Below, in pieces: positions 12,722 through 52,678 of a stretch of DNA of 64,000 nucleotides. Position 1 is the stretch's first letter. Each line of letters starts with the position of its first letter. Source of the DNA: Patescibacteria group bacterium (GTDB taxonomy: Bacteria; Patescibacteriota; Minisyncoccia; Phycocordibacterales; UBA918); NCBI GenBank assembly GCA_019745315.1, contig JAIETH010000001.1:90526-154525 (forward strand), read 5' to 3'. Position numbers and translations under genes: made by a program. Below the pieces are notes generated by a model that had not been told where the DNA came from, made no database searches, and saw only the letters and a program-made list of their open reading frames with translations.

Positions 12722-13042
12722 CTAGGGAAGGGATGCTATCTTTTGTTTGATCTTGAGAGTCCACGTGCGGAATGCATCTTCTGCGCGGAGAGCATCCATT
12801 TCAAAGATCAGCACATTCCAGCGAGGATCAGCATCTCCTCGCGCACATGCTTCGGGACTCAGATTTCTGTCCTTCGTCTCGAGAGGCATCTCTCCGAACA
12901 TATGGAAAAAGATTCGACCCCAGTAGCGGGTGTCATGTGCTTCTGGTGGTGAGCCGGTGAGAGCTTCATATTCTGTCCACGCGAGCGCGAATGCTTGAGT
13001 CAGTGCAACTCGAGGACTTAACAAAGTCTGGCCATCTGGCAT
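12722..13042 (-). CDS. Hypothetical protein, visibly GC-rich cassette
   Basis: Complete ORF with RBS 'GGAGA' and a -10-like 'tatatact' upstream. Shares a bidirectional hairpin terminator with uvrA. GC-rich third codon positions, unlike its neighbours. Confidence 0.5.
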   Translation of the reverse strand: MPDGQTLLSPRVALTQAFALAWTEYEALTGSPPEAHDTRYWGRIFFHMFGEMPLETKDRNLSPEACARGDADPRWNVLIFEMDALRAEDAFRTWTLKIKQKIASLP

Positions 13043-13146
13043 GGCGCTTCTCCATTGTTAGGGGTTTTCTAGGATCCCAGTATATACTTTTTTGTGTATA
13101 GAAAAAGGTCAGGGGTTCCTGGCCTTTACGGAGGGACGTTGTTTCT

Positions 13147-13304
13147 TAGTGATCCATCGGGTCCCATATAGAGAAAGATGAATTGAAATGATCAGAGGCT
13201 TCTTTTGCCTCCAAGAACTTGGGCCATACCCAGATGGCGGCGGCGAGAGTTGCGATTCCGCCGATAGGCCATACAAGCCAAGAAAGGGTAGAGTAAGTGC
13301 ACAT
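13147..13304 (-). CDS. Possible small membrane protein (52 aa), below the ORF-track size cutoff
   Basis: ATG preceded by 'GGGAGA' and an extended -10 'tatggtattacag'. Hydrophobic core 'LSWLVWPIGGIATLAAAIWVW'. A 10-bp hairpin with a T-run lies downstream on the - strand. Confidence 0.4.
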
Positions 13305-13379
13305 GGCCGTCGTCTCCCAGTCTTTTTATTGTTTTTCCCCCTATTTCTGTAATACCATAGAAGTTGAATCACTGTCAAA

Positions 13380-14621
13380 ATGAATAAAGAACAACTTTCA
13401 AAAAGTAAAAAGAAACTTCCTGATGCACCTGGTGTGTATTTTTTTCTTGGCGCTAAAAAAGAAATTCTCTACATAGGAAAAGCAACGTCGCTCGCGAATC
13501 GTGTCCGCAGTTATTTCACTGATGACATTCTCGAGAAACGAAGTCCGCTCATTGAAAAGATGGTTATCGAGGCAAAGACTATTGAATGGACAGTGACTGA
13601 TTCTGTTCTTGAAGCATTGCTTCTTGAAACAAATCTCATACGGACACATAAGCCGCGCTATAACACCATCTCCAAAGATGACAAGAGTTTTAATCATTTG
13701 GTAATCACTAAAGAAGAATTCCCACGCGTTCTCATTGTGCGCGCAAAAGACCTGGCAGAGAAATTTGAAACGACAGAGATTCGCTCAGTGTTTGGCCCGT
13801 TCACTAGTGGTGGGCTTTTGAAAGAGGCACTTAAGATCATTCGAAAAATATTTCAGTTCTATGATACGCATACACCAATAGATAAAGCACGTTCTAAGAT
13901 GGCGAGTGGGAAGATAAACTTCAACCGACAGATCGGTATTTATCCAGATAACACCTCGAAAGAAGACTATCAAAAAACAATTCGTCATATTGAACTTTTA
14001 TTTGAAGGAAAAAAGAATACGATCCTCAAAGAGCTTGAGCGCGATATGAAGCGCTATGCGAAAGAGCGTAAGTTTGAAGAGGCTGGTGTGGTAAAAAAGA
14101 AAATTTTTGCGCTCACCCATATTCAAGATGTCGCGCTCATAAAAGAACGAGATCGTGTCTATAGAGATGATCGAACGATCAGAGTTGAGGCATACGACGT
14201 TGCGCACTTAAGTGGCACAAGTATGGTGGGCGTTATGACAGTGGTTGAATCTGGTGAGCCAGATAAGGCGAGCTATAGAAAGTTTAAAATACAGACAGTT
14301 ATTGGTGCAAATGACACAGCGGCACTTGCTGAAATTCTTAATCGACGCTTGGGACACACTGAATGGCCGCTTCCACAGTGCATTGTTGTTGATGGAGGGG
14401 TTGCACAAAAGAAACGTGCTGAATCAGTCTTAAACACTGCAGGAGTGCACATACCGGTAGTTGCAGTGGTGAAGGATGAACATCATCGTCCTAAGCGAAT
14501 TTTGGGCCCTCAGAGCCTTGTTTCGAGTCTTGAGAGTGACATCATTCTTGCAAATGCTGAAGCACACCGTTTTGGTATTGGGTATCACCGCGATCTTCGC
14601 AAAAAAAGTAACTTTGGGTAA
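13380..14621 (+). CDS. uvrC: Excinuclease ABC subunit C, short form with no obvious C-terminal HhH domain
   Basis: N-terminal GIY-YIG ('GVYFFLGAKKEILYIGKATSL', 'R...Y'), a UvrB-interaction region, and a C-terminal RNase-H-like endonuclease region ('AYDVAHLSGT', 'VVDGGVAQ'). Confidence 0.85.
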   Translation: MNKEQLSKSKKKLPDAPGVYFFLGAKKEILYIGKATSLANRVRSYFTDDILEKRSPLIEKMVIEAKTIEWTVTDSVLEALLLETNLIRTHKPRYNTISKDDKSFNHLVITKEEFPRVLIVRAKDLAEKFETTEIRSVFGPFTSGGLLKEALKIIRKIFQFYDTHTPIDKARSKMASGKINFNRQIGIYPDNTSKEDYQKTIRHIELLFEGKKNTILKELERDMKRYAKERKFEEAGVVKKKIFALTHIQDVALIKERDRVYRDDRTIRVEAYDVAHLSGTSMVGVMTVVESGEPDKASYRKFKIQTVIGANDTAALAEILNRRLGHTEWPLPQCIVVDGGVAQKKRAESVLNTAGVHIPVVAVVKDEHHRPKRILGPQSLVSSLESDIILANAEAHRFGIGYHRDLRKKSNFG

Positions 14622-14642
14622 CGCACGCGTGTTTTATACGAT

Positions 14643-14729
14643 ATGACCATTGGATTTATTGGGCAAGGTGAGAAAGCGCGGGCTGAACATGCTGGGAGTA
14701 TGTTCAGAATCTTGCGAGATATCTTTTAA
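14643..14729 (+). pseudogene. Remnant copy of the 5' end of the downstream dehydrogenase gene ('MTIGFIGQGEKAR...' vs 'MIMKIGFIGQGWIGK')
   Basis: A 29-codon ORF whose first about 12 codons closely match the start of the 14824 gene at nucleotide and protein level, then diverge to an early stop. Confidence 0.35.
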
Positions 14730-14745
14730 AAAGTATCCACAAGAT

Positions 14746-14797
14746 GTACTGCTTCTGTAAGAAGGCTTTCGCAAGGTGTACAGCTTCTGTAAGAAGG
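14746..14797. promoter_or_regulatory. Two 20-bp direct repeats (gtacTgcttctgtaagaagg / gtacAgcttctgtaagaagg), each a near-palindrome, 32 bp centre to centre. Candidate tandem operator.
   Basis: Directly visible repeat immediately upstream of the 14824 gene. Confidence 0.4.
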
Positions 14798-14823
14798 GAT
14801 AGGCGCGTTGAATATATTTCACA

Positions 14824-15681
14824 ATGATTATGAAAATCGGATTTATAGGGCAGGGTTGGATAGGAAAAAATTACGCAAATGATTTTGAGGCGCGCGGGTA
14901 TGATGTTGTACGATATTCTCTCGAGACAGAATATATCGATAACAAAGAAAAAATAAAAGAGTGCCCAATTGTATTTATTGCTGTTCCTACACCAACCACA
15001 GAGCAGGGATTTGATGATTCCTATGTACGAAGTGCGCTTGGTGTCGTAGAAGCCGGTACGAGTGTTGTTATTAAATCGACACTTCTTCCTGGCACAACCC
15101 AAGCGTTGCAAAAAGCCTTTCCTGAGCTCTTTGTATTCCATAGCCCTGAGTTTTTGGTAGAAAAAACAGCTGCGTATGATGCTGCGCACCCTAATAGGAA
15201 TATTATCGGTATTCCTGAGGATGGTGAGGTGTATCGTGCCAAGGCACATGAAATTCTCTCTGTGTTGCCAGACGCACCCTATACACGAATCATGGACGCA
15301 CGCGATGCTGAGTTTGTGAAATATGCAGGCAATTGTTTTTTGTTCACCAAGGTTATTTTTATGAACATGCTTTATGATGTTGTGTTGCAATCTGGTGGCA
15401 CGTGGGATGCGGTACGTGATGCACTTATACACGATCCCCGTATTGGTGTGAGCCATACGGAGCCAGTCAATGCGGGCGGGCGTGGTGCAGGAGGTCACTG
15501 TTTCATCAAAGACTTTGAAGCATTTCGTCGTTTATACAGCGAACATGTCGGTGACCCACTCGGAGATGCAATTCTGTCGGCGGAAGCAGGTAAAAATATA
15601 GAACTGCTTCGTGCATCAGGAAAAGATCTTGATCTGGTGCGTGGAGTGTACGGAGAAAAATCACTCCACGCACACGACTAA
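14824..15681 (+). CDS. UDP-glucose/GDP-mannose dehydrogenase family protein, truncated, lacking the C-terminal UDP-binding domain
   Basis: N-terminal Rossmann 'KIGFIGQGWIGK' and the catalytic-Cys motif 'GGHCFIKD' (cf. GGSCFPKD) are present. Only 285 aa. Confidence 0.65.
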   Translation: MIMKIGFIGQGWIGKNYANDFEARGYDVVRYSLETEYIDNKEKIKECPIVFIAVPTPTTEQGFDDSYVRSALGVVEAGTSVVIKSTLLPGTTQALQKAFPELFVFHSPEFLVEKTAAYDAAHPNRNIIGIPEDGEVYRAKAHEILSVLPDAPYTRIMDARDAEFVKYAGNCFLFTKVIFMNMLYDVVLQSGGTWDAVRDALIHDPRIGVSHTEPVNAGGRGAGGHCFIKDFEAFRRLYSEHVGDPLGDAILSAEAGKNIELLRASGKDLDLVRGVYGEKSLHAHD

Positions 15682-17257: not shown

Positions 17258-17330
17258 GGGCCCGTAGCTCATCTGGTAGAGCGCCTCACTTGCACTGAGG
17301 AGGCGGCAGGTTCGAGTCCTGTCGGGTCCA
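17258..17330 (+). tRNA. tRNA-Ala (anticodon TGC)
   Basis: Cloverleaf with acceptor GGGCCCG/CGGGTCC and a G3:U70 Ala identity pair. D-arm GCTCATCTGGTAGAGC. Anticodon loop CTTGCAC. T-arm GCAGG-TTCGAGT-CCTGT. Discriminator A. CCA not encoded. Confidence 0.9.
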
Positions 17331-17343
17331 CTGATATACAAAA

Positions 17344-17367
17344 CACCGGCTTTATGCCGGTTTTTGT
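17344..17367 (+). terminator. Rho-independent terminator after the tRNA (caccggc-tttat-gccgg + TTTTTGTG)
   Basis: GC-rich hairpin plus T-run 14 nt after the tRNA. Confidence 0.55.
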
Positions 17368-17407
17368 GTATCAGGTTGGGTGACCAGGGACTCGAAAAGG
17401 TTGCCAG

Positions 17408-19057
17408 CTATTTATTTTTAAAATAGCGACAACCTGTACTGAACATGTAATGTTCGAGTCCTGTCGGGTCCACATCGTCAGAGTTTTGTTCGCAAAACTC
17501 TTCAAATATCCTTGCAGTACTTAGTGAATCAGAGGTTCGAAAGGCCTCTGATTTGCTGTATGTCAGACGGCTATCAAAAAGGAAGAAAAAGAGCCTCTGT
17601 TGTTCTATTGGACTCACAGAATCCCAGATCGTTATTGGGCTTTTGAGCATCTTCGTTGCTTTATCAAAGGCGGTTCGAAATGGAACTTTTAGGTCCCCAT
17701 TTTGTCCTGGCTTCATATCTTTGAGTTCTTTCGCCAATTCTTCGATCCTTTTCTCATATTGTTCTCGCACAAGATCACTTCGAGTCCTCGATGCGCTGTC
17801 AGTCAATTCTCTAATTTCTTGTTCGATCCTTTCGCACTCCCTAGCATTTGCTGTTTGCTTGCTTCGTAAATCATGAACTTCTTCCTTCCACACACGACTG
17901 AAGGTAAGATCGAGGATCTCATCCATCTCTTGCTTGATCGCGTTGCGTTTTACCAAAGCGCGAAAATCTTCCTCAATCTTCTTTCTCTGAATAGCCTTTG
18001 ACCTCAATGAACATCCCTTGTGGATGCAGTAGTAATAGTAATAAGGATTCTTTTTGTGGTTGCTTGATCGAGCCGCAGTCAATTTGCTCTTACACTCTGA
18101 ACAAAGCACTAATCCACGCAAAGGGAATTCCGGAGAAATGTCCTGGCGAACCCATGCTTTAGAAGAATCCTTTTGTAAACGTCGTTGAATCTTTTCAAAT
18201 GTTTCTACAGAAATGATCCCTTTATGCTTTCCAGGTCGTCGGGCTACACCCCATTTTGGATATTCAATATCACCGCAGTAGGCGACATCCCTTAGGATAT
18301 TAGAAACATCCGTGAGATGTCCTTCCGCTGTTCTTCTCTCCCAGAATTTATTTTCAAAAAGGAATCGCGCAACATCAATCTGCCTGACAAATATTCCAGA
18401 AGCAAAACCCTCAAGGGCTTCCTTCAAGATCTTTGCATCCTGGTTAGGCACTAGAACTTTTCCATGCAGTGGGTTTTTCACCATATCGAATCCGCGCTTC
18501 TTTCCAAAAGTGTAATAGCCAAGATCGAGCCTGGCTTTCATTTTCTGAATAACTTGTCGCTGGTTTTGTTTACGCTCTAGTTGAGCCTGGCCGGACATAA
18601 TCAGTTCGGCGAATTCACCCTCCGGACTCTCATCAAAATTATAGTTTAGACAACGGAGCAAAACTTGGCGGTTTCTAAATGCCTGCCTTAGTTTGAAATG
18701 GAATTCAACATTTCTTGAAAAACGCTTCAGATCATCAAATACGACTATAAATTTCTTGTGGGGATTTGCATCAATATATCCAATAAGTTCTCTCATTGCA
18801 GGTCGCTTCATAAAATCACCTCCACCCGTGAAAGTGTCAGGGAATGTCTTGATGTAAGGTACTCCGATCAATCGGAGATCATTTACACAGCGTCCTTCTT
18901 GGCTTGTCAGACCGGAGCCTTCCAATTCCTGTTTCTTTGAAGAAACGCGAGCATAAACAAGACCTTCTCTGCCGAGAAAGGGATTTTTGTTTTCTAAATC
19001 TTGGATTATTTCTTTATGGAGTTTTTTTATACTCATATAATTCTTGCCGTATAACAT
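17408..19057 (-). CDS. Large serine recombinase (resolvase/invertase-type N-domain plus recombinase and zinc-ribbon C-domains)
   Basis: 'GLVYARVSSKKQ' catalytic-Ser motif. 'NPYYYYYCIHKGC' zinc-ribbon-like cysteines. About 549 aa, typical of LSR integrases. Confidence 0.85.
   Translation of the reverse strand: MLYGKNYMSIKKLHKEIIQDLENKNPFLGREGLVYARVSSKKQELEGSGLTSQEGRCVNDLRLIGVPYIKTFPDTFTGGGDFMKRPAMRELIGYIDANPHKKFIVVFDDLKRFSRNVEFHFKLRQAFRNRQVLLRCLNYNFDESPEGEFAELIMSGQAQLERKQNQRQVIQKMKARLDLGYYTFGKKRGFDMVKNPLHGKVLVPNQDAKILKEALEGFASGIFVRQIDVARFLFENKFWERRTAEGHLTDVSNILRDVAYCGDIEYPKWGVARRPGKHKGIISVETFEKIQRRLQKDSSKAWVRQDISPEFPLRGLVLCSECKSKLTAARSSNHKKNPYYYYYCIHKGCSLRSKAIQRKKIEEDFRALVKRNAIKQEMDEILDLTFSRVWKEEVHDLRSKQTANARECERIEQEIRELTDSASRTRSDLVREQYEKRIEELAKELKDMKPGQNGDLKVPFRTAFDKATKMLKSPITIWDSVSPIEQQRLFFFLFDSRLTYSKSEAFRTSDSLSTARIFEEFCEQNSDDVDPTGLEHYMFSTGCRYFKNK
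17452..17473. repeat. 22-nt exact direct copy of the tRNA-Ala 3' end (positions 17310-17331). Putative att/integration scar.
   Basis: 'gttcgagtcctgtcgggtccac' occurs twice. The second copy lies inside the last codons of the serine recombinase gene on the opposite strand. Confidence 0.8.
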
Positions 19058-19271
19058 TCCGGCACAATGACTCTATATATTCTAACCTTTTTAGAATGAC
19101 TTCATCCGGCGTTTTGTAGTCTTTCAAGGACTTCCGGTATTCAGCAATCGAGACTAGAGGTTTCTCTTGAGAAGCCTCGACTATTTCTGGATTTCCCTCG
19201 CCAACCCTATTCATGGCGGTAGGGATCCTCCATTTCAGAGGCTCGAATAGCGAGTGACACCAAGGATCCAA
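19014..19271 (-). CDS. Hypothetical small protein. Overlaps the recombinase start and the upstream ORF in another frame.
   Basis: 85-aa ORF translationally coupled to the recombinase. No family recognised. Confidence 0.35.
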   Translation of the reverse strand: MDPWCHSLFEPLKWRIPTAMNRVGEGNPEIVEASQEKPLVSIAEYRKSLKDYKTPDEVILKRLEYIESLCRNVIRQELYEYKKTP

Positions 19272-19539
19272 TACAGGTCGCTTGCTGGGGGGTCATAGGA
19301 TCCGTCCTGACCCTGTTTATCGTGTCCTCAAGAAGAACTAGCATCTCGGATGGACGCCTCACTGGAAGCCGTTTTAGTGGCTTTCCAGGCCTTCTAGTCT
19401 TAGGGGATGATCCTCCTTTCCGGACCGCAATTCCACGGGCTTCCGCTGTACTTGGATCATGGGTAAAGCAAAACTCCCGACCATGTAGCGCGTAGGCCTT
19501 GCATCGACTGTCTTCTTTTGTCTTGTGGATACAGCGCAT
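19207..19539 (-). CDS. Hypothetical small Cys/His-containing (Zn-finger-like) basic protein, possibly a recombination directionality factor or regulator
   Basis: 'CIHKTKEDSRCKAYALHGREFCFTH' C-x9-C...H-x4-C-x2-H pattern. Basic, Pro/Arg-rich middle. Preceded by a roughly 270-nt structured leader. Confidence 0.35.
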   Translation of the reverse strand: MRCIHKTKEDSRCKAYALHGREFCFTHDPSTAEARGIAVRKGGSSPKTRRPGKPLKRLPVRRPSEMLVLLEDTINRVRTDPMTPQQATCIGSLVSLAIRASEMEDPYRHE

Positions 19540-19843
19540 GAGTTTTGCTTACTCTCGGCGCTACCCACCCACAAAAAATTCGCGAAGATTCGGGTTCGTT
19601 TTTCCTCACTAGAAACGGAAAAGGGACCTGAACCCCCGCGACCGTAGTCGTGGATGAGTTCAGATCCCTTAGGATTCCGAAGCCGAATCAGTCGATTCGC
19701 TTTATCGAGTTTACCTTTGGACCGTGTTTCTCCCGTGGGAAAAGCAAAGCCAAAGACTCAATAGCACTATCAACCTATGCTTATATTCTAACTCGTTGAG
19801 AAAACCTGTCAAAGGTTATTCAACTTGTCAGGCTCCATGAAAA

Positions 19844-20110
19844 CTAAAGGATGCTAATTTTGTCTGCCGCTTCTTCTGTCGATTTTTTGTCGGCAGTAAT
19901 CTTTGACTTCAACTTCACCAACTCCTTTTTGAGCAATTGCTTTGCTCTTTCTTTTTCCTCGGCCGAAGAAAAATGTTTGTTCTCAAACTCTTCGATCTTT
20001 CGGTCCATTTCCTTGAGTTTCTTTTTGTTGGCCACCATAAATATTGGAGCCATAAAACCTGCTAAGAACAGACCGATGAAGATCGCTACTACAAGAATGA
20101 TGATTATCAT
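19844..20110 (-). CDS. Small membrane protein with coiled-coil tail (88 aa)
   Basis: 'MIIIILVVAIFIGLFLAGFMAPIFMVA' TM followed by a K/E-rich helix. Confidence 0.45.
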   Translation of the reverse strand: MIIIILVVAIFIGLFLAGFMAPIFMVANKKKLKEMDRKIEEFENKHFSSAEEKERAKQLLKKELVKLKSKITADKKSTEEAADKISIL

Positions 20111-20356
20111 AAATTTGCTTGATCGACTTCTCTAATAATGCCCGCTAGGTTTTCCGTTTACACACAGAAAACCCGCCACGGGTAGGAGCCGAAGCCCCTC
20201 GTACAGGTTTCCCCATACGGCGATCAAGCAACCCCATGACGGGTTTTCTATGCTTGATCGACTTTTGACCATACCTTTGACCGGAGTCAAAGGGTTAGGC
20301 CCAACATATTCAGTTGTAAATACATTATACGATATTTTTGATTCCACTTACAGACT
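20111..20356. repeat. Structured non-coding region. Contains the 14-nt direct repeat 'tgcttgatcgactt' (20116-20129 and 20251-20264), an inverted 10-nt copy (20221-20230), and additional perfect hairpins (e.g. 20274-20293).
   Basis: Repeats and palindromes read directly from the sequence. No convincing ORF. Confidence 0.5.
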
Positions 20357-20404
20357 ATGCGAACAAGTCTAGAAATGGTGGTGTTTTTGTACTATAATGA
20401 ACTC

Positions 20405-21400
20405 ATGGCAAAGGCTACTAAAAAGAAAGCCGCACTAAGCCCTATTGAGGCCCTTGAAGCCTCAAGAAATAGCAGGGTGATTGTTTATTTTACAGGGGAC
20501 AGAAAACCTCAACCGTTTTCAACATTGGTTGGTATTGATGTACTCCCTGCATTCAAGGCTGTTCTCAAAAAAATTGGTAATACAAAAAAGATCACACTTG
20601 CCCTCTACACTAATGGGGGACATTTGGATACTCCTTGGCCTCTAATACATTTGATCAGGGAACACGCTGAAGAATTCGAGGTGCTTATTCTTGAGAAAGC
20701 ATTGAGCGCTGGAACTATGATTGCCCTAGGAGGCGATAAGATTGTCATGACGCCTCATTCTTTTTTGAGTCCTATTGATCCTGCAACCAATTTCCAAGAC
20801 GAGGAAAATCAGAAAATGAAGCGTTTTGAAATTGAGGATGTGATTGGGTATATAGATTTTGTTAGAGACAGAATCGGGATCACTGAACAACAGGCTTTGA
20901 TGGAAATCATGAAAGATTTGACTAAGGAAGTAAATCCTACTCGTCTTGGGTCTATTCATCGTACCCATGCTTTGGTTAGACGATTAGCAACAAAACTACT
21001 ATCGCTCCACAAAGAACCAGTGTCCGAAAGACAGACAAAGGAGATTATTGATCATTTGGCTCAAAAACTTTTTTCTCATAGTCATTTGATAAACAGGAAG
21101 GAAGCAAAAGAGATTGGTTTCGATAACATCATTGAATATGCCGATAAAGCAACTGAAAAGGCGGCTGATAATTTGATGACATACTATTCAGACTATCTCA
21201 AAATCGATGAGGAGTTTGAGCCTCTAAAGGAGATTGGCGAAAAAGAAGTAAAGAAAGAAATTCCACTAAGTCTAGCCGTAGTTCACTCCAAAGATCTCAA
21301 GTATGACTTCAAGGCAAATTGCGTAATTACAAAAGCCCCAGATCCAAACGGAAATCCTGGGATCAGAGTCGATATGAAATCTAAGTGGGAAAAAATATGA
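20405..21400 (+). CDS. ClpP/SppA/SDH-superfamily serine peptidase (crotonase-fold protease)
   Basis: 'LSAGTMIALGGDKIVMTPHSFLSPIDP' matches the ClpP-like G-x-S-x-G ... P motif pattern. About 330 aa with a non-protease C-terminal extension. Confidence 0.6.
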   Translation: MAKATKKKAALSPIEALEASRNSRVIVYFTGDRKPQPFSTLVGIDVLPAFKAVLKKIGNTKKITLALYTNGGHLDTPWPLIHLIREHAEEFEVLILEKALSAGTMIALGGDKIVMTPHSFLSPIDPATNFQDEENQKMKRFEIEDVIGYIDFVRDRIGITEQQALMEIMKDLTKEVNPTRLGSIHRTHALVRRLATKLLSLHKEPVSERQTKEIIDHLAQKLFSHSHLINRKEAKEIGFDNIIEYADKATEKAADNLMTYYSDYLKIDEEFEPLKEIGEKEVKKEIPLSLAVVHSKDLKYDFKANCVITKAPDPNGNPGIRVDMKSKWEKI

Positions 21401-21639
21401 AATACAACTCTCAAACAATATCAATAGGCAGTGATAGACAGAATTTCAAGACAAGCCTTGAAATAGCGGGTAATTTGAATGTTGGAGGAATTGTATATTC
21501 TACGCGACAAAATGGGTGGTTCATACAAACACAAGGTCCTGAAATAAAAAAGAACGAGCCATCAGGAGAATATGTAGAACTAAGTAAGGAAGAAGAAAAG
21601 AAGTTCTACAAGAAAGCCTTGGAGAAGAAACTTCTGTAA
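21397..21639 (+). CDS. Hypothetical small protein
   Basis: ORF overlapping the protease stop by 4 nt (operonic). K/E-rich C-terminus. Confidence 0.35.
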   Translation: MKYNSQTISIGSDRQNFKTSLEIAGNLNVGGIVYSTRQNGWFIQTQGPEIKKNEPSGEYVELSKEEEKKFYKKALEKKLL

Positions 21640-21642
21640 ATT

Positions 21643-22146
21643 ATGTATGCGGAACAAGGCCTACTCGATCCAACAACGCTTTACCAGGGAGATCTCATAG
21701 AAGATTTTCCTTTTCATGACCTTGATTCCCATTCTTCTGTAGTTAGAAACGAGAGTGGTACCCTAGTTGAACAAGCCACAGAGGATCAAAACTATCTTGC
21801 TCTCATTGAAACAAAGAAAAGGACAGTGATGATACTATCTCAAACTTGCGATATACAAAGGCGTACCCATGTCATTGTTTGTCCTATTTTCGATCTTCAA
21901 GAATACAGTAGAACTATCTCAAGGGATAAAGTTGAGGCTCTAAAAAAGAGAACAATAAACTATCTTTTTTATCTTCCCGCACATGGTAATTTTCAGGAAT
22001 CGTTTGCTGATTTACAACAGATTCACTATGTACCTCTAGAAACCATGAACTCCTACAAAGACAAGAGGGTTTTATCTTTGAGTGATTTGGGGAGACATCA
22101 TCTTTCTTGGTCCTTAGCATCTTTGTTTGGTCGGCCAGCATCGTAA
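21643..22146 (+). CDS. Hypothetical protein (167 aa)
   Basis: Begins 4 nt after the previous ORF. No recognisable motifs. Confidence 0.45.
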   Translation: MYAEQGLLDPTTLYQGDLIEDFPFHDLDSHSSVVRNESGTLVEQATEDQNYLALIETKKRTVMILSQTCDIQRRTHVIVCPIFDLQEYSRTISRDKVEALKKRTINYLFYLPAHGNFQESFADLQQIHYVPLETMNSYKDKRVLSLSDLGRHHLSWSLASLFGRPAS

Positions 22147-22522
22147 GTCTAGTTCTATATCCCTATTGTGGTAGTTGGATTGAAAGATCTCTAAGAAAAT
22201 TCAAGCGCTCTTTGAAGCGTAGGGCTTGATTGGTAGTACTCCCAAAAGCGAGATAGGTAGGTTTTCAGGTGGTTCGAAGTTTTATATACTGTGTCCACAA
22301 AATACGAAATAATCTCCCAAACGGGAGATTTTTCGATTTTGTGGAAAGCGCAGCCATATCGCTTTTGCGATGGCGAGCTGGGGTCGAGAGCACTTAGGCT
22401 TTTGTGAATACTTGGAACAAAAGACTTAGTGACTCGTGACCACTGGTGGAAGCCAAGGTGCGCTCGCGGAAATTTTGCCTAAAGCAAAATTATCTGTAAC
22501 CACAAAAAAGAGCGTTTTGTAT

Positions 22523-22867
22523 TCACGCTCTTCGTCTTCCGGCTTCTTCTCGTTCGAGTATCTCCTCATATTCTGCAGTGACGGTCTCCACATCATCTGG
22601 TTGTATAACCAGTGCTGCAATTAGGTCTCGTGCACGCATCTGGAGAAAGAAAATGGTGGGCAGTGATTTGCCGATCGCATACCTGACCACTGCCTCATGA
22701 ATTTTTCCAGCTACCACATACGCACTCATGTAGTATCCTGCGATAGAAAAGAACTCAGGAAAAAGGTCTTCCGGCAATCTATCCAGATCGGCACTCCCGA
22801 GAGAGATGCATTCAAGCTTATCTTTCATCTCACGGAAAGGGTGCAGTCGAATCAATCGTGATGCCAT
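22523..22867 (-). CDS. Hypothetical protein, GC-rich cassette
   Basis: Start set at the internal Met 'MASRLIRLHPF...', chosen on composition alone (the stretch upstream of it in the ORF is AT-rich); no RBS was checked. GC-rich third positions. Hairpin+T terminator downstream on the - strand. Confidence 0.4.
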   Translation of the reverse strand: MASRLIRLHPFREMKDKLECISLGSADLDRLPEDLFPEFFSIAGYYMSAYVVAGKIHEAVVRYAIGKSLPTIFFLQMRARDLIAALVIQPDDVETVTAEYEEILEREEAGRRRA

Positions 22868-23029: not shown

Positions 23030-23464
23030 ATGGCTCAAGGAGAAAAAATACTCCTTCTGGACGGAGAGAAGTCGAGGCGTGAAGGAATTGCTAAGCTTCT
23101 CACGGAATGGGGTCATAGGGTTGCTGCGGAGCGGTGTCCTGATACGGCGTGGCGATTGATTGAGCAGTACCCGAACTCCTTCACTGTTGTCATCGCTCCC
23201 GCCAACACGTCGCGTGGTAGCGGCACTGACTTCCTGGCTCGTGTTTCGTCTGGGATGAATACGCCGCCCCACCTGATCGCTCTGTGTGTCGCCCTCCATC
23301 ACTATCGGCGATATCTGCCGGATGTGATTGCGGACTTTGGGGGACACTGCGTTTCTGCGACCTGGCTTTGTGATGACGGAACGAACTACCCGCATCTCCG
23401 GGGTGTGATCGAAAACCTGAAGATACGACCCATTCTCTCGGTGACCGATACCAAAGACCACTAG
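23030..23464 (+). CDS. Receiver (REC)-like domain protein, degenerate (pseudo-receiver?)
   Basis: 'KILLLDGEKSRREGIAKLL...' has CheY-like N-terminal topology, but the acidic pocket and phospho-Asp are not conserved. GC-rich. Confidence 0.45.
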   Translation: MAQGEKILLLDGEKSRREGIAKLLTEWGHRVAAERCPDTAWRLIEQYPNSFTVVIAPANTSRGSGTDFLARVSSGMNTPPHLIALCVALHHYRRYLPDVIADFGGHCVSATWLCDDGTNYPHLRGVIENLKIRPILSVTDTKDH

Positions 23465-23488
23465 GTCTTCTGTATCGGTCTTTTTTAT
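23443..23488 (+). terminator. Hairpin (gaccgatac...gtatcggtc) plus T6 terminator of cassette 1. The 'TTTTTTATTTCC' motif is shared by the following cassettes.
   Basis: Seen directly. Analogous hairpin+T-run elements follow each of the seven cassettes. Confidence 0.6.
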
Positions 23489-23507
23489 TTCCAATTTCAG
23501 AAGGCAC

Positions 23508-23536
23508 TGTACAAAAACATATTACATGGTATAATT
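23508..23536 (+). promoter_or_regulatory. Sigma-70-type promoter for cassette 2: -35 'tgtaca', 17-nt spacer, extended -10 'TGGTATAAT'
   Basis: Read from the sequence. The same 'tatggtataa' element recurs upstream of cassettes 1, 4 and 5 and other genes. Confidence 0.45.
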
Positions 23537-23583
23537 CCTGCCGGATTTGCACCCGCAAGTCTCTCAGTATTCGGAGAGCCATA

Positions 23584-23967
23584 ATGGCACAAGCAAGGAT
23601 TCTCTTGGTTGAAGATGAACGGTTTTTGCGGAGCATGTACACTATGCTCCTCGAAGGGGCAGGTTATGAGGTTTTCTCTGCCGTAAACGGCGAGGAGGCA
23701 GAGGAAAAGCTGGAGCTCGGATCTTTCGATTTGATCTTGAGCGACAACAATATGCCGTTCAAGGATGGCGTGGATGTGCTTCGGGCTCTTCGCGCGGCAG
23801 GGAATGCCATCCCATTCATCCTTATGAGCGGGCGTCCTTGGCTTGATGACGGTACTGGCCTCGAGGATTTGTGCGCGTCCCACGGGGCGCAGTTCATCCA
23901 GAAGCCTGCTCAGAACAAGGTCCTTCTCGCCGCCATCGAGGAGATGCTCGCAGCCAAATCGGCATAG
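23584..23967 (+). CDS. Single-domain response-regulator receiver (CheY-like)
   Basis: 'RILLVEDE', phospho-acceptor context 'FDLILSDNNMP', and conserved 'T/S' and 'KP' ('FIQKP') positions. Confidence 0.85.
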   Translation: MAQARILLVEDERFLRSMYTMLLEGAGYEVFSAVNGEEAEEKLELGSFDLILSDNNMPFKDGVDVLRALRAAGNAIPFILMSGRPWLDDGTGLEDLCASHGAQFIQKPAQNKVLLAAIEEMLAAKSA

Positions 23968-24124
23968 GTTTCAAGATTGAGGAGTACCCGGGTGGACATG
24001 TGTCCATCCGGTTTTTTATTTCCATTCTCAAATACTTGCAATAGCTCAAATTATATGTTCCAATGCGTTTAGAGTCACACACAAAATCGTGTGAGTGGCA
24101 AAACCAAAACTGGAGGCTCATACA

Positions 24125-24508
24125 ATGAAGCGAATCTTGATTGTTGAAAGTGACGAAGCTCTTGCGGCAGAGCTGACAGAGATGCTGAAGGAGCATCTCG
24201 TGGTGACGGTGCCGAGCACTGTCACTGCATGGGTGTTGATCGAGGAAGGGCCGCCGTTTGATCTTGTGATCACGGATGTCGACAAGATCTCCGAGATGAG
24301 CGGGGTCCAGCTTCTCACGAACATGAAGGCGCAGTCTGTACCGAGCGCATGCGTGCTCATGAGCAGCGGCACCCACCACGACGGACAGTTCCTGCCTGAT
24401 ATTGCCCACAGGCTCGGCATCGAATTCATGCTCAAGTCGAGTATCCGCATTCGGTTTGTTCTTCCTCTCGTGGAGCGCCTTCTTGGTGTCACACGCGCCG
24501 CGGCATAA
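24125..24508 (+). CDS. Single-domain receiver (REC)-like protein
   Basis: 'RILIVESDE', 'FDLVITDVD'. Start taken at the internal Met. Confidence 0.6.
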   Translation: MKRILIVESDEALAAELTEMLKEHLVVTVPSTVTAWVLIEEGPPFDLVITDVDKISEMSGVQLLTNMKAQSVPSACVLMSSGTHHDGQFLPDIAHRLGIEFMLKSSIRIRFVLPLVERLLGVTRAAA

Positions 24509-24566
24509 GCCGCACCAATCCCTCTCCGCTTGCGAGTGGGATTTTTTCATACCCGGATACAAAATA

Positions 24567-24596
24567 TTGCAATTATTGTATTTCTATGGTATAAAA
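24567..24596 (+). promoter_or_regulatory. Promoter for cassette 4: -35 'ttgcaa', 18-nt spacer, 'TGGTATAAA'
   Basis: Read from the sequence. Confidence 0.4.
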
Positions 24597-24644
24597 CAGG
24601 TGGAAATTTCGCAGCTGTGCGGAATTCAGTGAGGGGGAAGTAGC

Positions 24645-25034
24645 GTGGCAAAAACCATTTTGGTCGTTGATGATGATGACGGCGTCCGCGAAGAGCTCGC
24701 GGAACTGATCGAGCTTCCGGGGCGGATCATCGTGATCGCCAAAAATCCGGAAGAGGCCCTCCGGCTCATCGATGGGGGTCTCAAGCCCCACTTGATCATC
24801 TCCGATCTCAACATGCCGCCGTATATGGACGGCTTCACCATGTTCATGGTGATTCGCCGCCTCAAGCGGTTTCCGTTTAACTTCATTCTGATGAGTGCGA
24901 GAGATAATCTGGACGGGGTGTCGCTCGCGGAGCTTTCGCGCAGGTACTCGTTCGAGTTCATCAGCAAGGGCTCTCTCCGAGGATCAGAGATCCTTCCGAT
25001 GGTCGCGCGCCTCCTCGAGAGTCTCGAGGTCTGA
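24645..25034 (+). CDS. Single-domain response-regulator receiver (CheY-like)
   Basis: 'ILVVDDDD', 'HLIISDLNMP', 'FISKG'. Confidence 0.85.
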   Translation: MAKTILVVDDDDGVREELAELIELPGRIIVIAKNPEEALRLIDGGLKPHLIISDLNMPPYMDGFTMFMVIRRLKRFPFNFILMSARDNLDGVSLAELSRRYSFEFISKGSLRGSEILPMVARLLESLEV

Positions 25035-25100
25035 GGGCCTCTCGCGCAGGTGTTTAAAAACACACCTGCGCTTTTTTATTTTCATACAAAACCATAGAGC

Positions 25101-25131
25101 TTGATAGTGCCATATTTTTATGGTATAAAAT
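25101..25131 (+). promoter_or_regulatory. Promoter for cassette 5: -35 'ttgata', 17-nt spacer, 'TGGTATAAAAT'
   Basis: Read from the sequence. Confidence 0.45.
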
Positions 25132-25179
25132 ACTTCAGAAATTTCGCCCCACGGCGACATCCGCAGGAGGTCAACCAAA

Positions 25180-25635
25180 ATGGCTCGTGTGCTCTGCGTA
25201 GATCCAGAAAACGAAGAATTGATAGTGCAGGTGATCCGAGGGATCGCTGATCACGGTCACACCGTGCATATGGTCCCGAGCCTTTTTCAAGTGCCCATCA
25301 CCGTGAGTCAATTCTACTTCGATCTCATGGTCGTGGTTGATGACCCTCTCGATTTCGATTTCGAGCGGCTCAAGGTTTTTCACGCAGCTCGATGCCGCGT
25401 GATTCCTCCTGACAATCTTCCACTGCCGCATCTTCTCGTCGTGTGTCCGGTGAGCATTCCTCCTCCTCGAGTGTGGAAGCTCAACTCACTCCGCATGCAA
25501 GTGCGGGAACCAACAAGTTACGTGGTGCTGGGGAAGAGCGATCAAAAACCCTGTCCGCTCTACGAGCACTTGAAGCCGCTCTTTCCGTCTGTTCTCCCAG
25601 AGCACACGCTCTGGACAGAACCTGTCCAAGCCTGA
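25180..25635 (+). CDS. Receiver-like domain protein, degenerate
   Basis: 'RVLCVDPENEE', 'FDLMVVVDD'. Pro-rich C-terminus. GC-rich. Confidence 0.4.
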   Translation: MARVLCVDPENEELIVQVIRGIADHGHTVHMVPSLFQVPITVSQFYFDLMVVVDDPLDFDFERLKVFHAARCRVIPPDNLPLPHLLVVCPVSIPPPRVWKLNSLRMQVREPTSYVVLGKSDQKPCPLYEHLKPLFPSVLPEHTLWTEPVQA

Positions 25636-25743
25636 CTCTCATCCGCATCTGCGGATTTTTTCTTTATTGCACATACAAATTATTTATGCGATCTTTTTAG
25701 AGGATAGTGCACATCCCGTGCTCACAATCAAAACGAGGGTGTT

Positions 25744-26211: not shown

Positions 26212-26336
26212 AGAGTACCCGAGACATGTTCTCGGTTTTTTTATTTCCCACCATACTCTTGATCCGTATCTTTTTTCATGTCACTATCTTTGCTCGGGGC
26301 GCGCAGTGCGTCCCTTGTTCTTTCCGGGGAAGATTC

Positions 26337-30478: not shown

Positions 30479-30525
30479 AAAAACCGCCTTCCTTTCGGAT
30501 GGCGGTTGTGTGGTGAGGCGATGCC

Positions 30526-41960: not shown

Positions 41961-42073
41961 AGAAGAAATACATCCTAAAAACAGACGTTTGTGCTATTTG
42001 CGCAAACGTCTGTTTTGGTATATTACGGTACCAATGTCCAATGCCGGGCAGAGATCTTTGAGGAGATCCTCAG

Positions 42074-42739
42074 ATGACAAGGCCGAAACCCAATATCTTC
42101 GTGATGGAGAACGATGGGGCCATTCGGGTCGGGGTTCGTCCCGATGGCCCGCATGGCTTTTCTCACCGAACACGGGATCTGAAAGACAGTGTGCCTGTCT
42201 TCCTTTCCAAGAATACTCCTCCTCGCTTCAAGGGAAGGGTGCTGGTTGAAGGCATTCTCTCGAAGAGCGAGAAAGGAGTCTTTCACATATCGCAGAGGCG
42301 CTCCTGGCGCGGCGCGCTGCTTCATGTGAGGGTGAGCCCCGATTTCCTCTTTCCGTCACATGTAGGCACGCACCTGTCTGTGGAAAATGCCTATCCGGGC
42401 ATCGAACACAGTGGTGGGTTCTTCTTCCAGATGGGGAGACGTGCCTCTACGTCTCAAGTGCAGTGGGCTGCGCTTGAAGAAGGAATGTCTATCCATGTTG
42501 CCGACACTGGCGGTATTCATGTTCGATACCTCAGGGTCACATGGACGGGCGACTGGCTTCAGGTTCTGCCAGCAACAAAGGAGGGGGTCGCGCAGACGCT
42601 GGTTGATCGCCTTCTTCGGCAAAGAAATCCCACCCATGTCGCCCTGACATGGACTTATGCAACGCTCCGAAGGCTCGAATGTCGGGCGCTCTGGCCAGCG
42701 ACGCTCGAGAGACGGTTGCGGGAACTGTCGCACAGGTAA
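42074..42739 (+). CDS. Hypothetical protein, GC-rich cassette
   Basis: GC-rich third positions. 'TTGGTATATTACGG' promoter-like element upstream. Hairpin + T6 'ATTACC' terminator downstream. Confidence 0.45.
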   Translation: MTRPKPNIFVMENDGAIRVGVRPDGPHGFSHRTRDLKDSVPVFLSKNTPPRFKGRVLVEGILSKSEKGVFHISQRRSWRGALLHVRVSPDFLFPSHVGTHLSVENAYPGIEHSGGFFFQMGRRASTSQVQWAALEEGMSIHVADTGGIHVRYLRVTWTGDWLQVLPATKEGVAQTLVDRLLRQRNPTHVALTWTYATLRRLECRALWPATLERRLRELSHR

Positions 42740-42804
42740 TGCACTCACGGGTGCATTTTTTATTACCTTTACTCGTAATCTTTTTTACAGCATAATGTAC
42801 GGAT

Positions 42805-49731: not shown

Positions 49732-49770
49732 ATTCTTGTGCTCCGTACCATTTATCGGTACTCTCTTGAT

Positions 49771-50859: not shown

Positions 50860-50867
50860 AATAATCT

Positions 50868-51707
50868 ATGCCACACAGTATTAATGTACGAAAAGCAGAC
50901 GGAACGCTCGAGGCTTTCAGAATGGAAAAACTCACTGACTCTTTGAGGCGCTCGGGAGCAACGGATGGGGAGGTGGTACATATAACGCGAGACATAGAAA
51001 AAACACTCGTTGACGGTATGACGACCGAAGCGATTTACAAAAAAGCCTTTACCCTATTGCGGAGTGGGGAGCATTTGACCGCTGCTCGTTATTCACTCCG
51101 ACGCGCCATGACAGGACTTGGCCCGACAGGATTTCCGTTTGAAGATTACCTCGCTCGTCTTTTTACGTATCAGGGATACAGTGTGGATGCTCGCGTGGAG
51201 CTTCAGGGGAAATGCATTTCTCATGAAATTGATATGCTCGCATTTAAAGAGGGGGTATGTCTCATAGGAGAAGCAAAGTTCCATGCACAAGTTGGTGTGA
51301 AGTCTGATGTACAAGTTGCATTGTATTCGCACGCACGATTCCTTGATATTGCGAGTGTTCCTATGCAAGGGAAGCTTGCCAATACTAAGCTTGAGTCATA
51401 TCTCATAACGAATACAAAGTTTACTTCGATGGCAATACAGTATGCAGAATGTGTCGGTACGCACTTGCTCTCATGGGATTATCCGAAGGTAGGGAATCTC
51501 CAGGAATTGATTCAAACATCAGGACTCTATCCAGTGACAGTTCTTCAGACACTCTCTCTCGCAGAGAAACGAAGTCTTCTTTCACAGGGTACTGTGCTCT
51601 GTAAAGATATTCTTGACAACGATTCTGTATTAAGTTCTATTGGTGTTTCTCGTACGAAAATAAGCCGTGTTTTAGACGAAGGTTCACGTCTCTGTATAAT
51701 TAAATAG
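50868..51707 (+). CDS. ATP-cone domain fused to a Mrr-like restriction-endonuclease (PD-(D/E)xK) domain
   Basis: N-terminal 'VRKADGTLEAFRMEKL...' ATP-cone. 'IDMLAFKEGVCLIGEAKFH' D...EAK nuclease core. Confidence 0.6.
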   Translation: MPHSINVRKADGTLEAFRMEKLTDSLRRSGATDGEVVHITRDIEKTLVDGMTTEAIYKKAFTLLRSGEHLTAARYSLRRAMTGLGPTGFPFEDYLARLFTYQGYSVDARVELQGKCISHEIDMLAFKEGVCLIGEAKFHAQVGVKSDVQVALYSHARFLDIASVPMQGKLANTKLESYLITNTKFTSMAIQYAECVGTHLLSWDYPKVGNLQELIQTSGLYPVTVLQTLSLAEKRSLLSQGTVLCKDILDNDSVLSSIGVSRTKISRVLDEGSRLCIIK

Positions 51708-51751
51708 GCTATGTTATACTATCAGCCATTAATAATGGTTAGTATTCCTAT

Positions 51752-52312
51752 ATGGATGAACAGAAACAAAAAACAGTCGTAGCGTTTGTAGTTGGGTTGC
51801 TTATTGGAGGGTTGTTGGTTTGGATTTTTTCAATCACACCAGACAACAAAAAGTCGTCTGATACAAAAAACACATCGGAATTTACAGAAAATACAGATGA
51901 AAATGCGTCTGATACAAATAAAGCTACTTCATCAGAGGAGAAAAAAGACGAAGTTATATCAACTGGGATCGTAGTAGAGAATGGTTCAGGTTCTATCGTA
52001 GTTGAGGATCAGTCTGCTGGTCTCTCTGTGGCAATTGCTTCAGTGCTTATGCCAGTTTCAAATGGATGGATTGTAGTTCATGAAATTAATGACGATGGCA
52101 CCTTGAGTAACATTCTCGGAGCTGCACGCTTCAGTGAGTCTGAAGACTTGATGCCAAAGTCAGTAGAGTTACTTCGCACAACTAAGGCAGGAGCAACATA
52201 CAAAGTAGTTATTTACGGAGGAAACGAAGATCGTATGTTTGATAAGGTTGCAGATATGCCTATCACTATGACAGGAGGATACCGAATTGAAGATTCATTT
52301 GTTGCGAAGTAA
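51752..52312 (+). CDS. Hypothetical membrane-anchored protein
   Basis: TM 'VVAFVVGLLIGGLLVWIF' then a Ser/Thr/Asp/Glu-rich linker and a beta-rich domain. A bidirectional terminator lies downstream. Confidence 0.5.
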   Translation: MDEQKQKTVVAFVVGLLIGGLLVWIFSITPDNKKSSDTKNTSEFTENTDENASDTNKATSSEEKKDEVISTGIVVENGSGSIVVEDQSAGLSVAIASVLMPVSNGWIVVHEINDDGTLSNILGAARFSESEDLMPKSVELLRTTKAGATYKVVIYGGNEDRMFDKVADMPITMTGGYRIEDSFVAK

Positions 52313-52384
52313 ATTACATACTTTGAAACACAAAAAAGCACCTCTCGAGGTGTTTTTTTGTATGAAAAAACTCTCCAAAGAGAG

Positions 52385-52678
52385 TTAGTTGAGTCTTGAG
52401 TTGAACAGAGACCACGTTTTGTCTCTGCGATGCAGAGAAATGAAGTCGGCGATCTCCAACCTGATCCACACTTCTGCAGTGGGATCGGAGGTTTTCGTGC
52501 CAGGTGTGTGGGTCACGTGGTCAATTTCTACGGTCAGCTCACTTAGAGTCATTTCGTCGCCCTTGCTTGGAGGGAAGAGGAAAAGCATATCCTGCTTCAG
52601 TGTTCTCCCCGTATCCATGGGTGCTTTGCCTTCTTCAGTAAGGACTTCTTCGATGGTCACGGGCAATGTAATAAACAT
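52385..52678 (-). CDS. Hypothetical protein, moderately GC-rich cassette
   Basis: RBS 'GGAGG'. 'ttatatggtaattatag' -10-like upstream. Terminator downstream on the - strand. Confidence 0.4.
   Translation of the reverse strand: MFITLPVTIEEVLTEEGKAPMDTGRTLKQDMLFLFPPSKGDEMTLSELTVEIDHVTHTPGTKTSDPTAEVWIRLEIADFISLHRRDKTWSLFNSRLN

Follow-up and report, generated by a model that had tools for sequence, protein, structure and literature searches.

The stretch of DNA analysed here (the window, 64,000 nucleotides of a bacterial chromosome) contains six small open reading frames (ORFs), labelled c1 to c6, that a sequence-only reading had flagged as GC-rich single-gene cassettes, possibly foreign, scattered between native genes of an AT-rich genome. 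All six exist exactly where that reading placed them. With a probability of roughly 0.55, they are unrelated, genuine, monocistronic and native small genes, whose orphan appearance is due to fast evolution and not to recent arrival, and whose GC enrichment, where present, reflects a force acting on particular genes. These units are ordinary in kind, namely small lineage-restricted accessory genes, while their unusual property is that they are GC-richer than the genome, a deviation that c4 maintains clade-wide.

The genes assigned by Pfam (uvrA, uvrC, Ddl, mltG/yceG, the F-ATPase operon, ychF, DUF5671, leuS and IF-1), the name of identical public proteins ('Patescibacteria group bacterium', locus tags K2X96_00610 to 00850) and the closest yceG relatives (Candidatus Kaiserbacteria or Paceibacteria, with at most 63% identity) place the window in the chromosome of a Kaiserbacteria-like member of the Patescibacteria. 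Nearly all its genes are carried on the + strand. The genome had been described as AT-rich, which holds only moderately (window GC 44.8%), and the GC content at third codon positions (GC3) of native genes is 0.379±0.041 (n=34 long native genes). Against a reference of in-frame samples drawn from native genes and matched in size, GC3 is raised in c4 (0.85, z=8.5), c3 (0.69, z=4.9), c5 (0.60, z=4.6) and c6 (0.58, z=3.2), marginal in c1 (0.48, z=1.6, p=0.08), whose total GC of 0.52 stems from codon positions 1 and 2, and the same as in native genes in c2 (0.43, z=1.0). The compositional anomaly is thus confirmed for four of the six ORFs, which show the atypical composition of a foreign islet, and for an array of receiver-like genes (the REC array, GC3 0.56-0.75), but not for c1 and c2. 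The excess in c3-c6 and in the REC array sits in coding sequences, mainly at third positions and across every codon class, and is also present in the 3' untranslated region/terminator stems of c3 and c4. At the four-fold degenerate sites of c4, the frequencies are A 0.01, C 0.51, G 0.38 and T 0.10. The proteins had also been characterized as rich in Arg, Ala, Gly and Pro, a weak tendency at best, since these residues make up 0.27-0.32 of five ORFs and 0.19 of c6, against 0.25 in native proteins.

The six ORFs are genuine protein-coding genes under purifying selection. The ratio of non-synonymous to synonymous divergence (dN/dS, Nei-Gojobori estimates against close relatives) in the annotated frames is 0.08-0.45 where measurable, and changes are mostly found at third positions; therefore, the six ORFs evolve as coding sequence. 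ORFs c1-c4 and c6 match public gene calls in full length, whereas the public calls for c5 disagree (221 aa according to JGI, only the last 119 codons according to NCBI). Searches of Pfam, PHROGs, NCBIfam and PADLOC returned nothing above threshold for any of the six. An all-against-all BLASTP comparison revealed no similarity among them, and the possibility that they form one family or a shared mobile element was rejected, given this lack of similarity and of shared flanking repeats. Rfam (at the gathering threshold and at E=1) and ARAGORN identified within the window only a LOOT RNA and a tRNA-Ala, both outside the six ORFs; ribosomal RNA, T-box or other structured RNA was, thus, discarded as the identity of the GC-rich stretches, which lack any Rfam match even at E=1.

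Regarding their organization as independent units, a promoter and a terminator of their own are convincing for c3, c4, c5 and c6, and partial for c1 and c2. The 90 nt upstream of the units are AT-rich (GC about 0.23-0.48), as had been claimed, but the exact motif TGGTAT(A/T) ascribed to each unit precedes only c5 among the six; it occurs 41 times in the window and is simply an extended -10 element (TGnTAnnnT). Promoters were found by consensus scan for c3 and c6, and the promoter of c4, which a strict consensus scan misses, was read from the sequence. Terminators composed of a hairpin and a T-run were retrieved by consensus scan for c1, c5 and c6 and recognized by eye, with imperfect stems, for c3 and c4, but none is convincing for c2. 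The description of each unit as lying between two housekeeping genes is accurate for c1 (uvrA and uvrC), c3 (an unknown 411-aa gene and mltG/yceG), c4 (yceG and atpB, with a UPF0176 rhodanese also among the window neighbours) and c5 (ychF on one side, DUF5671 and leuS on the other), applies loosely to c6 (a DUF7282 gene and a PD-(D/E)XK nuclease), and does not apply to c2, whose neighbours are an integrative element and the REC array.

Relatives with 90-97% DNA identity were obtained for every unit from independent ENA, JGI, Logan and NCBI assemblies, and about 1.4 Mb of related loci from other assemblies (labelled L001, L003, L012 and so on; GC 0.30-0.61) were compared in total. A word-indexed search of 5.8e9 proteins with c4 recovered only c4 itself, while an exhaustive HMMER search of 1.8e9 representative proteins yielded two remote relatives, and a profile search enlarged the family to about seven members. 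The family was exposed by a yceG scan of GTDB genomes which was of no use for presence/absence tests, since it gave only relatives with at most 63% YceG identity and little conservation of gene order; likewise, a metagenome scan with AtpB gave only relatives with at most 69% identity. Members of the c4 family reside in Kaiserbacteria-like contigs near yceG, a leucine-rich repeat (LRR) gene and an HhH-GPD glycosylase (L003, L012, L142) or near the UPF0176 rhodanese (L144). Their GC3 is 0.77-0.85 in all six genomes, where the host background is 0.38-0.66 and most neighbouring genes have values of 0.39-0.72. Consequently, the earlier idea of a gene family under compositional constraint does not describe the six ORFs, which are not one family, but fits the c4 family, which keeps GC3 at about 0.8. 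Pairwise identities of the family parallel those of YceG at lower values (0.60 vs 0.75 between L003 and L012; 0.22 vs 0.56 between the window and L003), the pattern that a vertically inherited but faster-evolving gene should give. Every homologue belongs to Kaiserbacteria-like contigs with related neighbourhoods, so phylogenetic incongruence that would indicate a foreign lineage is absent. With a family resident in the clade, in a related neighbourhood and with the same extreme GC3, a recent foreign insertion of c4 is refuted: the clade-wide conservation with the same composition that the sequence-only reading had regarded as the mark of an ancestral gene is what the c4 family displays, and c4 has very probably been inherited vertically within the clade.

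Two nearer orthologues, located upstream of atpB in L145 and L146, illustrate how fast this gene changes. L146 is 90.7% identical to the window over 3.3 kb, and its c4 retains 53% protein identity and 63% nucleotide identity (dN 0.41, dS 0.86), whereas dN of atpB is 0.005 in the same comparison; hence, the protein divergence of c4 is about 80 times that of the adjacent atpB between relatives that are about 91% identical. The c4 promoter is 100% identical in L146 and the terminator nearly so, the latter being conserved in both loci. In L145 (AtpB 100% identical), an identical stretch of c4 gives way to strong divergence over the last ~30 codons. Among the six frames of c4, dN/dS is lowest in the sense frame (0.45), the antisense in-register frame being open but neutral, and differences at codon positions 1, 2 and 3 number 52, 47 and 71, respectively. 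Genes that keep 53% protein identity where flanking DNA is about 91% identical look like orphans, and the orphan appearance of c4 is evidently the result of rapid divergence and not of recent arrival. Despite this turnover, GC3 is 0.85 in c4 and 0.82 in the L146 orthologue across a dS of 0.86, and synonymous sites are saturated between family members. The composition of c4, held across saturating synonymous divergence, is stationary and not ameliorating.

The AlphaFold2 (AF2) model of c4 (predicted local distance difference test score, pLDDT, 74) consists of a three-stranded sheet and a long helical hairpin, and its structure comparison gave no informative fold match; the protein carries invariant His and Trp residues. 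A 250-aa member of the family (L012 11132-11884, - strand) has a weak PADLOC match to 'Aga_Nuclease' (E 2.7e-4, 18 bits), which was treated as unreliable, and the c4 model is unlike a PD-(D/E)XK nuclease. In L146, positions 1-255, upstream of the conserved c4 promoter, hold the 3' end of another very GC-rich ORF with its own hairpin terminator instead of yceG, so that the c4 neighbourhood of this relative has probably been rearranged or carries a further GC-rich unit.

The six ORFs occupy the same sites in independent assemblies whose flanking DNA is 90-97% identical, and neither patchy presence nor an empty site is found for any of them among these relatives. Flanking repeats, shared recombination sites or inverted repeats at unit ends are absent among the six units, the 8-mer CTCACGGG common to the terminator loops of c4 and c5 is at chance level, and no integrase lies beside any of the six. 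PHROGs and PADLOC gave no phage or defence matches for the six, and scans of IMG/VR with the c4 family profile, c5 and c3 gave no relatives, on which account a phage origin was rejected. With fixed sites, no repeats and no phage-, plasmid- or defence-like matches, the claim of repeated insertion of foreign ORFs receives no support for any of the six, and a foreign-cassette reading of the units other than c4 is unsupported.

Gene-scale gain and loss at intergenic and terminator sites is nevertheless real in this lineage, in agreement with one part of the sequence-only reading, but both directly observed gains of coding DNA at intergenic sites are AT-rich (GC 0.32-0.39) and not GC-rich. In L001 (about 94-96% identical), an additional 677 bp (718-1394) located between window positions 41960 and 41978 contain an AT-rich (GC 0.32) 173-aa gene with a predicted transmembrane segment, placed between the ychF stop codon and the hairpin of the ychF terminator/c5 promoter. 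An AT-rich integrative element of about 5 kb (window 17475-22496; 17258-22496 with the tRNA-Ala) is absent from L057 and L061, where c2 adjoins the pterin-4a dehydratase/tRNA-Ala region without an intervening island. The sole GC-rich insertion seen is a structured element of 181 bp (59% GC) in L053 (3906-4086), L054 and L056, all of them 99.8-100% identical to the window. This element sits between the stop codons of c1 and uvrA, in the terminator T-run, with an 8-bp duplication, TTTTTATT, and its empty site lies at 12706-12713 in the window. On either strand, its folding is far better than that of shuffled sequence (z -6.2 and -5.8). Neither an Rfam match nor a further copy, in the window or in the related loci compared, was found for it, and it could represent a novel patescibacterial miniature mobile element or structured RNA.

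Divergence of the window from its relatives is mosaic or patchy in every comparison made. Against L059, positions 29938-31038 show 0-2 differences per 100 nt, while the adjacent DNA shows 7-19 per 100 nt; this segment, which spans c3, is in all likelihood a recent homologous recombination tract. The zero synonymous divergence of c3 is explained by this near-identical tract of about 1.1 kb, and a special constraint on the gene was rejected, since near-identity extends past it. In three independent assemblies, the contig breaks off exactly 132 bp upstream of yceG, where the c4 locus starts to be reached (window 32019-32127), and the last 109 bp do not match the window, and two contigs end at window position 25355, inside the REC array. 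These recurrent breaks (L059, L147, L057 and L061) suggest co-existing divergent alleles or insertions and would fit hypervariability at the population level. GC-rich islands of 250-1000 bp are found in many related loci, and eight of ten small ORFs sampled from them have no Pfam domain. Sharply GC3-rich genes of related genomes (L144 967-1740 and 11287-11793; L047, L014 and others) include an M50 peptidase (L144, GC3 0.78), a peptide deformylase, a TauE exporter and a 168-aa orphan (0.83), the first three of which are islands of housekeeping type. Patchy GC, thus, seems to be a property of the whole clade that is not exclusive to orphan genes.

The second subject of allele replacement is the REC array. 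Three of its seven genes exceed the cut-off of Pfam Response_reg PF00072 (30.2 bits), namely rec2 (67.5), rec4 (48.2) and rec3 (31.6), rec6 matches weakly, and the divergent rec1, rec5 and rec7 are tied to the array only by BLAST to their paralogues. By these matches, rec2, rec3 and rec4 are bona fide receiver domains, and the REC genes are predicted to be single-domain CheY-like receivers. Comparable genes (rec1-rec4) have dN/dS of 0.13-0.40, and dS of the array is 0.28-0.74 vs 0.05-0.16 in flanking genes. The rec2 slot is 51% identical in L061, where rec1 and rec3 are about 90% identical, which points to replacement of the rec2 allele between conserved neighbours. The extended -10 element TGGTAT(A/T) at 22974, 23527, 24587 and 25121 precedes the start codons of rec1, rec2, rec4 and rec5 by 56-59 nt, and this near-constant spacing suggests that the array grew by duplication of whole promoter-gene units. 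In distant relatives, the GC3 of REC homologues does not exceed the background.

The GC shift, which is uniform over codon families, its persistence in hosts of differing GC and its association with hypervariable, allele-swapping loci (c4, rec2 and rec4) and with a tandem array of paralogues argue for a GC-favouring process specific to these genes. Such a force would counter AT-biased mutation pressure of the genome in c3-c6 and in the REC genes, and its likeliest form would be GC-biased repair during frequent homologous recombination or allele replacement at hypervariable loci, with alleles exchanged between conserved flanks. We favour this recombination-associated repair on indirect support, namely mosaic divergence and allele replacement at GC3-rich loci; selection on synonymous GC content would be the chief alternative. 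A link between recombination and GC3 has been published for bacteria (Lassalle et al. 2015, PMC4450053). High expression was discarded as the cause of high GC3, since IF-1 (GC3 0.37) and the ATP synthase genes (0.44-0.50) keep low values.

Several points weigh against this explanation. Housekeeping genes within the same mosaic recombine too, yet their GC3 stays low. The GC excess follows the boundaries of transcription units, a pattern that suits selection on mRNA or codons at least as well as conversion. Moreover, deep homologues exist for c4 only, the ancestry of c3, c5, c6 and the REC array being shown to about 95% nucleotide identity, so that an older horizontal acquisition of these genes is a live rival; the REC homologues of more distant relatives, which are not GC3-rich, fit import as well as a local process. 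Finally, c3 and c6 are GC3-rich but not fast-evolving in a single comparison each, and in L144 a high GC3 is shared by the housekeeping M50 peptidase, a gene of quite another kind.

The strongest competitor, possible though clearly less probable than native genes under a gene-specific force, is horizontal acquisition, by which GC-rich ORFs would have been imported from a GC-richer donor (other Patescibacteria, whose GC spans about 30-61%, the host organism or an unknown virus) into an intergenic or terminator region, acquiring or bringing a promoter, and would not yet have reached the composition of their new genome. The strongly atypical composition of c3, c4, c5 and c6 is what it predicts, and homologues outside very close relatives are lacking for c5 and, in the ~1.4 Mb of related loci, also for c1, c2, c3 and c6. 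The background GC3 of REC homologues in distant relatives makes the excess of the array species-specific, the GC range of related loci (0.30-0.61) shows that GC-rich donors exist within the clade, and intergenic sites do gain and lose DNA, as seen in the extra gene of L001, the 5-kb element and the 181-bp insertion with its 8-bp target duplication. However, the c4 family is resident in the clade, keeps its neighbourhood and has GC3 of about 0.8 in six genomes, stationary across a dS of 0.86. In addition, the GC-rich tracts end at the upstream boundary of the coding sequence and promoters and Shine-Dalgarno sequences look native, direct repeats and integrases are missing beside the six, matches in PHROGs, IMG/VR and PADLOC are likewise missing, and the coding insertions caught in the act are AT-rich.

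Selection on synonymous sites is a more improbable explanation, in which GC-rich codons or mRNA would be favoured in short monocistronic transcripts for reasons such as mRNA stability, avoidance of AU-rich cleavage sites of RNases or toxins, or condition-specific decoding. It would account for an excess that lies in coding sequence, third positions above all, that persists in the c4 family across hosts of differing GC and that leaves A-ending codons nearly absent at the four-fold sites of c4 (0.01). Yet canonical highly expressed genes (IF-1 and ATP synthase) have little or no such bias, the shift is uniform over codon families, including CGG and CTG, and seems compositional rather than tuned to particular tRNAs, and the link with hypervariability is left unexplained.

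A dedicated cassette or diversification system, in which terminator sites captured integron-like or moron-like cassettes or a diversity-generating retroelement (DGR) acted on these genes, is far less probable still and is already largely refuted. The units do resemble cassettes in being monocistronic promoter-gene-terminator modules between conserved genes, a strain with 99.9% identity has the recent 181-bp GC-rich insertion, with its 8-bp duplication, in the T-run of a terminator next to c1, and c4 and rec2 are hypervariable between conserved flanks. Nonetheless, the units share no attC-like or other repeat, CTCACGGG included; there is no integron integrase, the sole recombinase being that of the AT-rich tRNA-Ala element; and positions 12000-53500 of the window, the region searched, contain no template/variable repeat pair of at least 18 nt. 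A DGR mechanism for c4 was rejected on this last ground, no such pair involving c4, and on the pattern of its differences, which fall at all codon positions and not in the adenine-derived manner at positions 1 and 2. Practically negligible, lastly, is the notion that the six are not genes but structured RNAs of high GC or ORFs left open by chance in GC-rich DNA: such DNA keeps antisense frames open (an antisense ORF was called for c4 in L146), Pfam matches are absent and the first 74 codons of c5 hold just two changes, both non-synonymous, but third-position-dominated substitution with dN/dS below 0.5 in the annotated frames, protein-level conservation of the c4 family, the confident AF2 model and the lack of any Rfam match even at E=1 speak against it.

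A bolder form of the gene-specific GC-favouring explanation, which we regard as unlikely, is that small, hypervariable and independently transcribed Kaiserbacteria-like genes (the c4 family and the receiver array) are held at GC3 of about 0.8, independently of genome composition, by a locus-specific process tied to continual allele replacement between conserved promoter and terminator 'anchors'. If true, these loci would be hot spots of recombination or gene conversion, or of an unrecognised targeted diversification, with a sharply bounded GC-rich block as footprint, and such blocks would mark those interaction genes of the episymbionts that evolve rapidly. It is common practice to take an atypical composition as a sign of horizontal transfer, and the c4 family, with GC3 about 0.2-0.45 above every host genome examined and an extremely fast protein turnover, is a clean counter-example. 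Were the bias linked to recombination, GC-rich blocks could offer an inexpensive way to locate hot spots of recombination and interaction genes that change fast, useful in uncultured episymbionts with reduced genomes whose genes are mostly unannotated. Such loci also have practical consequences, as assemblies break at them and gene callers mis-call them, e.g., the antisense ORF picked in L146 (328-807) and the truncated c5 of the NCBI record.

Table 1. Coordinates of the features of the window treated in the text
Feature	Position	Strand	Description
c1	12722-13042	-	106-aa orphan gene; GC 0.52, GC3 0.48, not significantly high
Repeat of tRNA-Ala 3' end	17310-17331 and 17452-17473		Perfect, 22 nt
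Large serine recombinase	17408-19057	-	Integrative element, next to tRNA-Ala (17258-17331)
LOOT RNA	20184-20301	-	In integrative element
ClpP/SDH-type protease	20357-21400		In integrative element, with small AT-rich ORFs
c2	22523-22867	-	114-aa orphan gene, normal composition (GC 0.48, GC3 0.43); belongs to flank of REC array
REC array	23030-26768	+	Seven small receiver-like genes; GC3 0.56-0.75
c3	30526-30840	-	104 aa; weak resemblance to sigma-70 region 4 as a stand-alone domain; GC 0.57, GC3 0.69
c4 promoter	32053-32080	+	TTGACT, 16 nt, TG-extended TACTTT; followed by Shine-Dalgarno GAGGGGTG before ATG
c4	32127-32612	+	161 aa; GC 0.63, GC3 0.85; rare family confined to Kaiserbacteria; hypervariable among close relatives
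c4 terminator	32636-32665	+	10-bp stem with one mismatch, then T-run
atpB promoter	32699-32726		Downstream of c4 terminator
ychF terminator hairpin	41978-42024	+	Overlaps extended -10 element of c5, TGGTATATT (42016-42024)
c5	42074-42739	+	221-aa orphan gene; GC 0.57, GC3 0.60
c5 terminator	42738-42765	+	Consensus scan
c6	52385-52678	-	97-aa orphan gene; GC 0.49, GC3 0.58

Among the remaining ORFs, c3 is the one for which a helix-turn-helix similar to sigma region 4 had been proposed, and weak but consistent matches agree with this assignment. Seven NCBIfam sigma models (ECF/RpoE/RpoH) match it with E values of 0.003-0.09, all over region 4 and far below curated cut-offs, it aligns to residues 116-193 of E. 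coli sigma-E (PDB) with an E value of 0.08, and IMG labels a 99%-identical relative as a sigma-70/32 subunit, although a Pfam search gave no match. These similarities, weak but consistent, point to a stand-alone sigma-region-4-like domain that may bind DNA or RNA polymerase. The promoter of c3 is TTGACA-16-TATGAT at 30903-30876.

For c5, the comparison with L001 revealed 28 synonymous and 12 non-synonymous codon changes (dN/dS 0.12), with a clear coding signal in codons 75-221, and its only homologues among the 5.8e9 proteins are relatives with at least 90% identity. Nine differences separate c6 from L060, and eight of them affect third positions of codons in the minus-strand frame (dN/dS 0.08); its promoters lie at 52768-52712 and its terminators at 52386-52339. 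The dN/dS of c2 is 0.14 (vs L061), and that of c1 is 0.22, estimated from only four synonymous and three non-synonymous changes. Six other assemblies carry a copy of c1, identical or 97% identical, at this site, and a bidirectional hairpin at 12715-12734 is common to c1 and uvrA. The 337-bp spacer between c1 and uvrC (window 13043-13379) is nearly invariant with respect to L057 (about two differences) and includes an ORF (13109-13378, - strand) with a codon score like that of non-coding DNA; this spacer could have a conserved regulatory role or encode an RNA that has so far escaped recognition. On the other side of uvrC, the spacer towards the UDP-glucose dehydrogenase gene (14603-14824) is replaced in L057, with 17-40 differences per 100 nt vs 0-6 in the flanks, and a 41-aa ORF is called within it in relatives.

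Among known systems, the six ORFs are close to the ORFan or compositional 'islet' genes, with which they share their short length, fast evolution, lack of homologues beyond close relatives, location between core genes and composition unlike that of the core. Orphan and recently acquired genes of bacteria are reportedly AT-richer than their host as a rule and drift toward its composition (Daubin and Ochman 2004; Lawrence and Ochman 1997); unlike them, the units described here are GC-richer, and the deviation of c4 is stationary across the clade and not decaying. Phage morons, too, are single genes, often of atypical composition, that bring a promoter and a terminator of their own and are inserted between conserved genes, and the presence or absence of such units distinguishes related strains, as does the extra gene of L001. 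However, the present units reside in a cellular chromosome (uvrA/uvrC, mltG, the atp operon, ychF and leuS) with no prophage and no phage homologues, none of the six is polymorphic for presence or absence, and c4 is, by its family relationships, apparently inherited vertically.

Integron cassettes are likewise small single-gene units, heterogeneous in function and composition, but they are promoterless, arrayed at an intI/attI platform and bounded by attC sites, whereas the units of the window are scattered and have their own promoters and terminators, with no attC or integrase found. Targets of diversity-generating retroelements are common in the Candidate Phyla Radiation, and c4 recalls them as a small hypervariable protein of Patescibacteria whose gene has a variable 3' end, immediately followed by a GC-rich sequence that is conserved and by a hairpin; in contrast to them, neither a template repeat nor a reverse transcriptase is found in the window, and the variation of c4 is gene-wide and affects all codon positions. 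In terms of protein similarity, rec2, rec3 and rec4 are like CheY-like regulators in passing the Pfam Response_reg threshold, and c3 aligns to region 4 of extracytoplasmic function (ECF) sigma factors, as stand-alone sigma region 4 proteins would; they differ in that the matches of c3 lie below curated thresholds and that neither a partner kinase nor sigma regions 2 or 3 are adjacent. As for the process behind the composition, GC-biased gene conversion (Lassalle et al. 2015, PMC4450053) offers the likeness of a GC3 raised in all codon classes at loci with signs of recombination or allele replacement, although the increase observed here, +0.2 to +0.47 GC3 per gene, is far above the genome-wide correlations reported.

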